The notes: generated by a model from the letters alone, not told the origin. Shown: positions 44,885-47,973, counted from the stretch's first letter. The stretch: DNA of 64,000 nt from Escherichia coli (GCF_003334785.1 NZ_QOWV01000001.1); one strand, 5' to 3'. Translations and numbers: made by a program.

Positions 44885-45117
44885 TGAGATCCCGTTATTT
44901 TTATCAATTTTTGTTGCTATCCGATCGCAAAAAAGCCACGTCATATGATCAGATAATTCTGATAATGATAGACGCTATTTAACACTTCACACGGTTTGTA
45001 TACGGAAAAGCATTTTGCTTTTTGTATTCAATTTAGACAGAATTTTATTAATCATTTCAGGGTAATGGGGTGATGAGATGTTGCGTAACAGGGCCAGAAG
45101 GCTAGACTACAAAATAA

Positions 45118-46122
<1,005 letters not shown>

Positions 46123-46168
46123 CAAAAGCAATTTTTCCGGCTGTCTGTATACAAAAACGCCGCAAAGT

Positions 46169-46182
46169 TTGAGCGAAGTCAA
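46169..46182. promoter_or_regulatory. FNR box centred about -42 of FnrS
   Basis: TTGAG-CGAA-GTCAA (consensus TTGAT-N4-ATCAA), 35 nt upstream of the FnrS 5' end; class II activation spacing. Confidence 0.65.
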
Positions 46183-46217
46183 TAAACTCTCTACCCATTC
46201 AGGGCAATATCTCTCTT

Positions 46218-46339
46218 GCAGGTGAATGCAACGTCAAGCGATGGGCGTTGCGCTCCATATTGTCTTACTTCCTTTTTTGAATTACTGCATAGCACAATTG
46301 ATTCGTACGACGCCGACTTTGATGAGTCGGCTTTTTTTT
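46218..46339 (+). ncRNA. fnrS: FNR-activated small RNA FnrS
   Basis: GCAGGTGAATGCAACGTCAAGCGATGGGCGTTGCGCTCCATATTGTC...GACGCCGACTTTGATGAGTCGGCTTTTTTTT recognised from memory; terminal hairpin plus U8. Confidence 0.8.
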
Positions 46340-46396
46340 GCCTGTTATTTATCAGCGTCTACCCTTTAAGAGTCCACCCAATGACCAGAGGGAAAT

Positions 46397-46570
46397 ATGA
46401 CGACACTTATTTATTTGCAAATTCCTGTCCCTGAACCGATTCCTGGCGATCCTGTTCCAGTGCCCGATCCGATCCCTCGCCCGCAACCCATGCCTGACCC
46501 ACCACCCGATGAAGAACCGATTAAATTGTCGCATCGTGAGCGTAGATCTGCGAGGATACGCGCCTGCTAA
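46397..46570 (+). CDS. 57-aa proline-rich small protein (absent from ORF track because under 60 aa)
   Basis: ATG at 46397 with GAGGGAAAT RBS-like spacer; encodes MTTLIYLQIPVPEPIPGDPVPVPDPIPRPQPMPDPPPDEEPIKLSHRERRSARIRAC; stop TAA 46568-46570; may correspond to the small gene ynaL, name not verified. Confidence 0.5.
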   Translation: MTTLIYLQIPVPEPIPGDPVPVPDPIPRPQPMPDPPPDEEPIKLSHRERRSARIRAC

Positions 46571-46599
46571 CTTTGCGTCGATGACCACGAGAATAGATT

Positions 46600-47973
46600 G
46601 TGACCGCTTTTTCTACCCTGAATGTTTTGCCTCCCGCCCAACTCACGAACCTTAATGAGTTGGGTTATTTAACCATGACGCCGGTGCAGGCCGCCGCGCT
46701 TCCGGCGATCCTTGCCGGAAAAGATGTTCGCGTGCAGGCGAAAACCGGCAGCGGCAAAACGGCGGCTTTTGGCCTCGGCTTGTTACAGCAAATTGATGCG
46801 TCGCTATTTCAAACCCAGGCTTTAGTGCTGTGTCCTACGCGTGAACTGGCGGATCAGGTGGCAGGTGAATTGCGTCGGCTGGCGCGTTTTCTGCCAAATA
46901 CCAAAATTTTGACGTTGTGCGGTGGTCAACCGTTCGGTATGCAGCGTGATTCGTTGCAACATGCGCCGCATATTATCGTGGCAACGCCGGGGCGTTTGCT
47001 GGATCACCTGCAAAAAGGCACGGTATCACTGGATGCGTTGAATACGCTGGTGATGGATGAGGCCGACCGCATGCTGGATATGGGATTTAGCGATGCCATT
47101 GATGATGTCATCCGTTTTGCGCCTGCATCTCGACAGACGCTTCTGTTTTCGGCAACCTGGCCGGAAGCCATCGCTGCAATCAGCGGACGAGTGCAACGCG
47201 ATCCTTTGGCGATTGAAATTGACTCAACAGATGCTTTGCCACCCATTGAACAACAATTTTATGAGACATCCAGCAAAGGCAAAATTCCTCTGTTGCAACG
47301 GTTATTAAGCTTGCATCAGCCATCCTCTTGCGTGGTGTTTTGCAATACCAAAAAAGATTGCCAGGCTGTCTGCGACGCGCTGAATGAAGTAGGGCAAAGT
47401 GCATTGTCATTACACGGCGATTTGGAGCAACGCGATCGCGATCAGACCCTGGTACGTTTTGCTAACGGTAGCGCCCGTGTACTGGTCGCGACTGATGTTG
47501 CTGCGCGTGGTCTGGATATTAAATCGCTTGAGCTGGTGGTGAACTTTGAGCTGGCGTGGGACCCTGAAGTTCATGTACATCGCATCGGTCGTACAGCTCG
47601 TGCAGGAAATAGCGGTCTGGCGATCAGTTTCTGTGCTCCGGAAGAAGCACAGCGGGCCAATATCATTTCTGACATGTTGCAGATAAAACTTAACTGGCAA
47701 ACGCCGCCAGCTAATAGTTCCATTGCGACGCTGGAAGCAGAAATGGCAACGTTGTGTATCGATGGCGGGAAAAAAGCCAAAATGCGCCCGGGTGATGTAT
47801 TAGGTGCACTGACAGGAGATATCGGGCTTGATGGCGCAGATATTGGCAAAATCGCCGTGCATCCGGCGCATGTCTATGTCGCGGTCCGTCAGGCTGTTGC
47901 TCATAAAGCATGGAAACAGTTACAGGGCGGGAAGATTAAAGGAAAAACGTGCCGGGTGCGGTTATTAAAATAA
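46600..47973 (+). CDS. dbpA: DEAD-box ATP-dependent RNA helicase (23S rRNA hairpin 92-specific)
   Basis: 457 aa ORF with GTG start; motifs GSGKT, DEAD, SAT, HRIGRTAR. Confidence 0.9.
   Translation: MTAFSTLNVLPPAQLTNLNELGYLTMTPVQAAALPAILAGKDVRVQAKTGSGKTAAFGLGLLQQIDASLFQTQALVLCPTRELADQVAGELRRLARFLPNTKILTLCGGQPFGMQRDSLQHAPHIIVATPGRLLDHLQKGTVSLDALNTLVMDEADRMLDMGFSDAIDDVIRFAPASRQTLLFSATWPEAIAAISGRVQRDPLAIEIDSTDALPPIEQQFYETSSKGKIPLLQRLLSLHQPSSCVVFCNTKKDCQAVCDALNEVGQSALSLHGDLEQRDRDQTLVRFANGSARVLVATDVAARGLDIKSLELVVNFELAWDPEVHVHRIGRTARAGNSGLAISFCAPEEAQRANIISDMLQIKLNWQTPPANSSIATLEAEMATLCIDGGKKAKMRPGDVLGALTGDIGLDGADIGKIAVHPAHVYVAVRQAVAHKAWKQLQGGKIKGKTCRVRLLK

Follow-up and report, generated by a model that had tools for sequence, protein, structure and literature searches.

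The open reading frame (ORF) at 46397–46570 on the plus strand of the 64,000-nucleotide stretch of Escherichia coli DNA analyzed here (the window) is ynaL, a gene that has been named, annotated, and detected as a protein since 2018. In our assessment, YnaL is a translated and selected small protein of the PF23677 family; it probably acts in trans as an extended peptide, and its C-terminal tail in E. coli is probably to a large extent a by-product. The present analysis adds that, judging from sequence comparison, the YnaL family extends to Erwinia, Mixta, Phytobacter, and Scandinavium, where the C-termini differ, that it tracks fnrS rather than dbpA, and that its tail in E. coli overlaps an element conserved at the nucleotide level. 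These observations narrow follow-up to the acidic x-Pro core, the fnrS linkage, and the conserved element upstream of dbpA, and are of modest specialist interest.

The ynaL frame starts with ATG at 46397, ends with TAA at 46568–46570, and encodes 57 amino acid residues (MTTLIYLQIPVPEPIPGDPVPVPDPIPRPQPMPDPPPDEEPIKLSHRERRSARIRAC), 16 of which (28%) are proline. The protein matched the Pfam family PF23677, "Protein YnaL-like", over the entire model (residues 1–57 to model positions 1–57 of 57) with a score of 136.8 bits and an E-value of 2.2e-40. The window is identical to the MG1655 genome across 46100–46700, and the counterpart of the ORF in MG1655 is b4743 (1409308–1409481; RefSeq protein WP_001296046.1). 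A 601-nt query around ynaL matched 5393 of the 5426 complete E. coli genomes, and all 30 sampled E. coli records label the ORF as ynaL, "proline-rich small protein YnaL", or "protein YnaL". The first-pass annotation had described an unlisted, unusually proline-rich 57-residue ORF with a ribosome-binding site between FnrS and dbpA. Its position, translation, proline content, and flanking genes were all reproduced, with FnrS (46218–46335) upstream and the GTG codon of dbpA (46600) 29 nt downstream; the term "unlisted" applies only to an ORF track with a 60-residue cut-off, and in RefSeq the gene is annotated as b4743.

The name ynaL was given by VanOrsdel et al. (2018), who reported the same 57-residue sequence and placed it between fnrS and dbpA (PMC6001520). 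In that study, YnaL was among 36 sORFs whose chromosomally SPA-tagged products were visible on immunoblots of LB cultures; YnaL-SPA was detected in both exponential and stationary phases, and ynaL was scored positive in tetracycline ribosome profiling (PMC6001520). The initiation profiling and tagged-fusion expression that the first-pass annotation had proposed as checks on the ORF had thus in essence been published, both with positive outcomes (PMC6001520). A mass-spectrometry survey, as far as it is described by VanOrsdel et al., gave zero peptides for any of their new small proteins (PMC6001520). No assignment of a function to YnaL was found in the accessible literature, including supplements, and the PDB contained no sequence relative of YnaL.

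The ATG of ynaL is preceded at a distance of 4 nt by the strong Shine-Dalgarno sequence GAGGG (46388–46392, plus strand), and each of the 39 loci compared has a GGAGG-type sequence 4–6 nt before the start codon. On the upstream side, zntB (45139–46122) is followed by the sRNA gene fnrS and its terminator (46218–46339, plus strand), in which the sRNA itself matched Rfam RF01796 at 46218–46335 with 134.8 bits. The terminator (46312–46339), with an 8-bp stem including 5 GC pairs at 46312–46331 and a run of 8 T residues, looks strong. In Rfam searches at both gathering and permissive thresholds, FnrS alone was matched. On the downstream side, a 29-nt spacer (46571–46599) containing a conserved Shine-Dalgarno-like CGAGA (46588–46592) separates ynaL from dbpA (46600–47973, plus strand), which encodes a DEAD-box 23S rRNA helicase and starts with a GTG codon behind a poor Shine-Dalgarno sequence; ttcA lies on the opposite strand of the window. 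Because the gap is 29 nt and no terminator-like site was found between 46340 and 46600, ynaL and dbpA are probably co-transcribed in E. coli.

A consensus sigma-70 scan yielded no good promoter for ynaL. A candidate weak promoter, TTGCCT-N16-TACCCT (46338–46365, plus strand), scored below the threshold in that scan; its −35 element overlaps the T-tract of the fnrS terminator, its spacer is variable in sequence and constant in length, and its TCTACCCT is invariant in 31 loci. The geometry of this candidate is kept in approximately 30 of the 39 loci, and a 9-nt deletion in the spacer breaks it in three Citrobacter loci (L023–L025). A further small ORF of 15 codons (45078–45125, plus strand) is located 13 nt upstream of zntB and corresponds to the protein YnaN (b4773) in RefSeq; it may be a leader ORF for this zinc transporter gene.

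A sequence search identified 164 relatives of YnaL, all with PF23677, in Escherichia, Citrobacter, Salmonella, Enterobacter, Klebsiella, Leclercia, Kosakonia, Raoultella, and other genera. Loci from 30 species-representative genomes were compared, and all 30 had the gene order zntB-fnrS-ynaL-dbpA; nucleotide invariance was counted over 31 loci, and the inclusion of divergent loci raised the number to 39. The frame and its ATG were intact in all 39 loci, which cover more than 15 enterobacterial genera from Escherichia to Erwinia and Mixta, and only in-frame indels were found. Substitutions were counted by codon against the window sequence and summed over 14 inter-genus pairs. The leucine-rich N-terminal 17 codons (46397–46447) were variable, with a pS of 0.685, a pN of 0.515, and a pN/pS of 0.75, which is a rough figure on account of the gappy alignment in this part. 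The acidic (x-Pro)n core, comprising residues 18–40 (DPVPVPDPIPRPQPMPDPPPDEE; 46448–46516), showed a pS of 0.75, a pN of 0.061, and a pN/pS of 0.08, and the corresponding values for dbpA in the same genomes were 0.676, 0.066, and 0.098. Even against the Erwinia, Mixta, and Phytobacter types, an 18-residue part of the core gave a pS of 0.82 and a pN of 0.09, and each proline position of the core is encoded by three to five different codons across the loci. Because synonymous change is saturated, amino acid change is small, and indels are in frame, the core is constrained as a peptide and not as RNA or DNA. By these counts, purifying selection on the core is as strong as that on dbpA, and the N-terminal 17 residues would be near neutral and of little importance. 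The conservation and substitution check suggested by the first-pass annotation therefore came out in favor of a protein-coding gene, with the frame intact in 39 of 39 loci and a pN/pS of about 0.1 in the core.

Variation in the length of the core was also observed. In E. coli E69 (L009, 2501–2638), a 33-nt in-frame deletion removes 11 residues from the proline-rich core, and in a Salmonella enterica protein (P0053), 10 residues of the core (PDPRPHPQPM) are duplicated. Tandem Repeats Finder detected no DNA repeat in the E. coli copy of ynaL.

When 1.84 billion representative proteins were searched exhaustively with a profile, only 35 matches were returned, and divergent members of the family came to light. 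A short type of YnaL ending in ...EEPIK(L/M)S(H)R was found in Kosakonia, some E. hormaechei, and a divergent record labelled Salmonella, and another type ending in ...DPDPRPIxDPPPH(R/M) was found in Phytobacter, Erwinia, Mixta, and Scandinavium. The position of the stop codon also varies: Klebsiella proteins are longer by at least five residues, and KLS(H)R is the C-terminus of 24 family members. In all 39 loci, fnrS is located directly upstream of ynaL, with approximately 50–100 nt from the end of fnrS to the start of ynaL. The downstream side is variable. dbpA adjoins ynaL in the same orientation in 33 loci; in most of the genera concerned the gap measures 23–29 nt, whereas it is 14 nt in Klebsiella and reaches 62 nt in two loci with a short ORF (L032 and L033). 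In Phytobacter, Mixta, Scandinavium, BIGb0383-type Enterobacter, and locus L040, the order is zntB-fnrS-ynaL-hairpin-ttcA with a terminator-like hairpin immediately behind the ORF and ttcA on the minus strand, and dbpA is not adjacent; dbpA is absent between ynaL and ttcA in L034, L037, L038, L039, and L040 (at about 2500–2700 in each). In the Erwinia-type locus L035 (2501–5192), ynaL is followed by ttcA and then dbpA, both on the plus strand. As far as gene order indicates, zntB-fnrS-ynaL is the stable unit and dbpA is a variable insert or loss. Across the family, ynaL is tied to fnrS and zntB and not to dbpA. The constant linkage to fnrS hints at an oxygen-limited physiology for YnaL.

Two database records deserve mention in this connection. 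The 106-residue protein P0145 results from a gene call that begins inside fnrS (MQRQAMGVALHIVLLPFLNYCIAQLIRTTPT...), in the same frame as the ORF at 46226–46369 of the window, and runs on into a YnaL of the Phytobacter type; although an artefact of annotation, it shows that fnrS and ynaL are adjacent in its organism. Locus L032 (CP191473.1, GCA_050507695.1) is labelled Salmonella enterica and contains a YnaL of the short Kosakonia-like type. Identity to the E. coli proteins is only 84% for its ZntB and 83% for its DbpA, compared with 92% and 86–87%, respectively, for S. enterica subsp. arizonae and diarizonae, and the record may be mislabelled or represent a divergent lineage.

In the 3′ part of ynaL, the pattern of conservation is of a different kind. 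Thirteen codons (P41–H46 and R50–A56) gave a pS of 0.000 and a pN of 0.020, so that pN/pS is undefined. These codons form block A, CCGATTAAA(T/A)TGTCGCA (46517–46533, plus strand; P41–H46), without a synonymous change in 31 loci, and block B, GATCTGCGAGGATACGCGCC (46545–46564, plus strand; R50–A56), of which 46545–46563 is invariant in 31 loci. The blocks are separated by 11 nt of fixed length and variable sequence, are located 36–83 nt before the dbpA start, and have no extra copies in the 64-kb window. Block B spells R-S-A-R-I-R with the codons AGA, AGG, and ATA, which occur 1, 0, and 3 times per 1000 codons, respectively, in three neighboring genes. In L032 and L033, the ynaL stop codon follows block A, and block B is found downstream as non-coding sequence with one mismatch and the same 11-nt spacing. 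Block B is absent where dbpA is not adjacent, including the Erwinia-type locus, in which both blocks are absent. In the dbpA-less locus L039, the peptide P-Y-K-L-S-R is kept and block A has 5 mismatches in 17 positions, including a synonymous change from TTG to CTA. The nucleotide-level constraint therefore appears to go with dbpA adjacency, an association based on eight distant loci. Because there is zero synonymous change in the 13 codons and block B is conserved even while non-coding, the basic tail in E. coli (approximately residues 41–57) is probably to a large extent a by-product of the frame entering an element upstream of dbpA. The basic tail RERRSARIRAC noted in the first-pass annotation is thus present in the translation and most simply explained in this manner.

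We infer that blocks A and B most likely serve dbpA as a promoter, an operator, or a protein-binding site in the 5′-UTR. The consensus scan detected no sigma-70 promoter for dbpA inside ynaL; by eye, TAAA(T/A)T (46522–46527) and TGnGAGGAT (46549–46557) are possible −10 elements without a −35 element. To our knowledge, the consensus sequences of sigma-24, -28, -32, and -54, compared by eye, do not fit the blocks. A description of the regulation of dbpA was not found in the searchable literature. Several other explanations of the blocks were rejected. For the region from the ynaL 3′ end to the dbpA start, RNAalifold found one compensatory pair and a covariation term of −0.47, and folding of the single sequence gave a z-score of 0.15, which does not indicate a conserved RNA structure. 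A long-range helix pairing GUCGCA of block A with UGUGAC at the dbpA start, considered as a translational-coupling switch, had a probability of 0.54 in E. coli and of about 0 in the majority of genera, and shuffles that kept both hexamers fixed did equally well in 21% of cases. Pairing of FnrS with the ynaL-dbpA RNA was weaker than that of 98% of background segments. The region around hairpin 92 of 23S rRNA is the site of DbpA action, and mimicry of it could serve autoregulation; the best local alignments were located elsewhere in 23S rRNA and were no better than those of shuffled sequences (fraction reaching the observed score, 0.6–0.84). Block B might owe its conservation to pausing at its rare codons (AGA, AGG, and ATA), but this explanation is undercut because the block is conserved where it is non-coding. 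An overlapping ORF in another frame (46509–46655) loses its ATG in Salmonella and Klebsiella, which have GAC for GAT, and a frameshift fusion of ynaL with dbpA would meet an in-frame TAG 6 nt before the GTG codon.

The core of YnaL contains a PPP motif at codons 35–37 (46499–46507, plus strand) in the context D34-P35-P36-P37-D38, which is a candidate EF-P-dependent pause site. PPP is found in 136 of 146 family members (93%), PP only in six, and neither in four; in E. albertii and the C. youngae group, the site reads PDPSPD and contains no Pro-Pro. By the sequence criterion, strong polyproline stalling motifs (PPP, DPP, and PPD) are present, and it is plausible that YnaL synthesis depends on EF-P; ynaL was not among the accessible entries of an EF-P/EfpL profiling supplement. 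An AlphaFold model based on the family alignment contained no helix or strand, with a pLDDT of about 90 for residues 21–40 and a pTM of 0.23. DSSP assigned nothing to the model, and a polyproline-II geometry is our interpretation of the predicted core. Eight residues of the protein are Asp or Glu, and the core is acidic.

Together, these features are best accommodated by a short, non-globular, extended peptide that would act in trans on a partner. Its core would probably form a polyproline-II rod, the N-terminal 17 residues would matter little, and the DPPPD motif would probably make synthesis depend on EF-P. In E. coli, the frame would run into the conserved nucleotide element before dbpA and thereby acquire its basic tail. 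Action in trans is argued most strongly by the retention of ynaL as a stand-alone gene in several genera, where there is nothing downstream to regulate. The suggestion of the first-pass annotation that the ORF encodes a small protein in its own right is borne out by the detection of the tagged product (PMC6001520), the selection on the core as protein, and the retention of the gene in genomes where a terminator is all that follows it. Two points count against action in trans: conservation of the C-terminal 40 residues is equally expected of a nascent peptide acting in cis, and the SPA tag may stabilize an otherwise short-lived peptide.

The first-pass annotation had also proposed a regulatory leader for dbpA. 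A cis-acting leader in the clade of Escherichia, Salmonella, Citrobacter, Enterobacter, Klebsiella, and Kosakonia is unlikely in our estimate, and it would be an added layer rather than the primary function. Ribosomes on ynaL would shield C-rich, G-poor RNA from Rho and feed the weak dbpA start (GUG with CGAGA); a stall at DPPPD under low EF-P or prolyl-tRNA would uncouple translation from transcription, Rho would terminate, and dbpA expression would fall. The arrangement of the two genes on the same strand with a 29-nt gap and no terminator, the PPP motif in 93% of the family, the GTG start of dbpA with its poor Shine-Dalgarno sequence, and the invariant blocks at the junction are consistent with these steps. 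In addition, the C/G ratio reaches 2.59 in the 78-nt segment at 46429, within the top 0.04% of plus-strand segments in the 64 kb, and Elgamal and Ibba reported that polyproline stalls in the absence of EF-P allow Rho termination and remarked that rut sites and PPX-coding sequences are alike in being C-rich (PMC5021804). However, C-richness follows automatically from CCN codons. Moreover, the conservation extends to the peptide sequence beyond the proline codons, Pro-Pro is missing from the PPP site in E. albertii and the C. youngae group, no conserved RNA switch is indicated by the covariation and folding scores given above, and ynaL is retained without adjacent dbpA in at least five genera. 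Because ynaL ends in a terminator without adjacent dbpA in several genera, a dbpA leader cannot be its family-wide role, and as the main role it is not supported, given the association of the gene with fnrS and zntB, the selection on the peptide itself, and the failure to find a conserved attenuator structure. We regard as still more doubtful the narrower proposal that, where dbpA lies 14–62 nt behind ynaL, ynaL translation and blocks A and B jointly gate DbpA expression. DbpA remodels the peptidyl-transferase region of 23S rRNA, and such gating, if true, would tie this 50S-assembly helicase to the ribosomal capacity for Pro-Pro bonds.

Nascent-chain arrest of the SecM or TnaC kind, in which the C-terminal 40 or so residues, about the length of the exit tunnel, would pause translation near the end of the ORF, seems to us very improbable. 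It would account for conservation being limited to the last 40 residues, since the first 17 would by then be outside the tunnel and free to vary, and for the distant members that end in DPPPH(R/M), with the motif two residues before the stop and directly followed by a terminator hairpin; RSARIRA in the tail also recalls the IRAGP motif of SecM. Against it, the stop position varies as described above, the downstream gene is convergent in most dbpA-less loci so that nothing there could be regulated, and the codons for RSARIRA are untranslated in Kosakonia-type loci and L032, the DNA being conserved nonetheless. This reading is weaker than that of a leader because the putative arrest motif is untranslated in Kosakonia. 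A different proposal concerns expression rather than function and is compatible with action in trans: ynaL may be transcribed mainly by read-through of the fnrS terminator from the FNR-activated fnrS promoter, which would make YnaL a protein of oxygen limitation with a functional tie to FnrS. The presence of fnrS about 50–100 nt upstream in all 39 loci while the downstream neighbor changes, the gene call P0145 spanning from inside fnrS into ynaL, and the lack of a good sigma-70 promoter for ynaL in the scan are in line with it. Nevertheless, we give it a rather low probability: the fnrS terminator looks strong, the two-block promoter-like pattern is conserved in about 30 of 39 loci, RNA pairing of FnrS with ynaL-dbpA was no better than background, and YnaL-SPA was seen in LB in both growth phases (PMC6001520). 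Finally, the ORF might be a chance frame subject to pervasive intergenic translation without a selected product; it is short, of low complexity, and without a known phenotype, and the mass-spectrometry survey, so far as it is cited by VanOrsdel et al., lacks peptides for their new small proteins (PMC6001520). Given that the frame is intact in all 39 loci, which represent more than 15 genera, that the ribosome-binding site is conserved, and that the tagged protein was detected (PMC6001520), this is scarcely credible, and a core pN/pS of about 0.1 with saturated synonymous sites contradicts it, barring a misalignment artefact.

In comparison with known systems, the ORF differs in nothing from the YnaL family (PF23677): sequence and coordinates are identical, the HMM match is full-length, and the synteny is the same. 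The leaders mgtL and mgtP have about 17–18 codons and alternative RNA structures or a mapped Rho site, and their codons matter rather than the peptide. With mgtL/mgtP-type leaders of Salmonella and the model of Elgamal and Ibba (2016; PMC5021804), ynaL shares a short, proline-rich, co-oriented upstream ORF, C-rich RNA, and a polyproline motif. Unlike mgtL and mgtP, it has 57 codons, its amino acid sequence is selected, no switch structure was found for it, and it survives without a downstream target. Leader attenuators of the mgtL, mgtP, or pyrL type have the regulated gene directly downstream in all members, depend on codons with the peptide free to vary, and have a terminator or alternative structures in the gap; for ynaL, the gene directly downstream is not dbpA in Phytobacter, Mixta, Scandinavium, the BIGb0383-type, and L040, the core pN/pS is 0.08–0.11, no terminator was found in 46340–46600, and the covariation and folding scores gave no sign of alternative structures.

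The proline-rich spacer of TonB, a rod of (Glu-Pro)n and (Lys-Pro)n, resembles YnaL in its alternating x-Pro with acidic residues and its expected extended, rigid shape. YnaL matched the NCBIfam TonB profile with an E-value of 2.9e-4 and the Pfam TonB_N profile with an E-value of 0.75. The NCBIfam match scored 20.8 bits against a curated cut-off of 315 and aligned only the proline-rich region (profile positions 80–112). YnaL, in contrast to TonB, has neither a membrane anchor nor a C-terminal domain, and the likeness is compositional and not a matter of homology. As for the arrest peptides SecM and TnaC, conservation over about the last 40 residues and the tripeptide IRA, which resembles the SecM motif, are shared; YnaL differs in that the motif is untranslated in the Kosakonia-type loci L032 and L033 and that the stop position varies. 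The PxP spacing is shared with apidaecin, oncocin, and Bac7, and IPRPQP of YnaL resembles IPQPRP of apidaecin. Animals secrete these proline-rich antimicrobial peptides, which are strongly cationic and target the ribosomal tunnel or DnaK; the core of YnaL, in contrast, is acidic.

In the surroundings of the locus, the window matches MG1655 at every position between 44889 and about 48987, except for one SNP at 46049. From 48988, which coincides exactly with the annotated left boundary of the cryptic prophage Rac, it departs sharply from MG1655, with 202 mismatches in the next 300 nt or so when compared base for base at the same offset without alignment. At the Rac site, the strain from which the window derives is therefore different from K-12.
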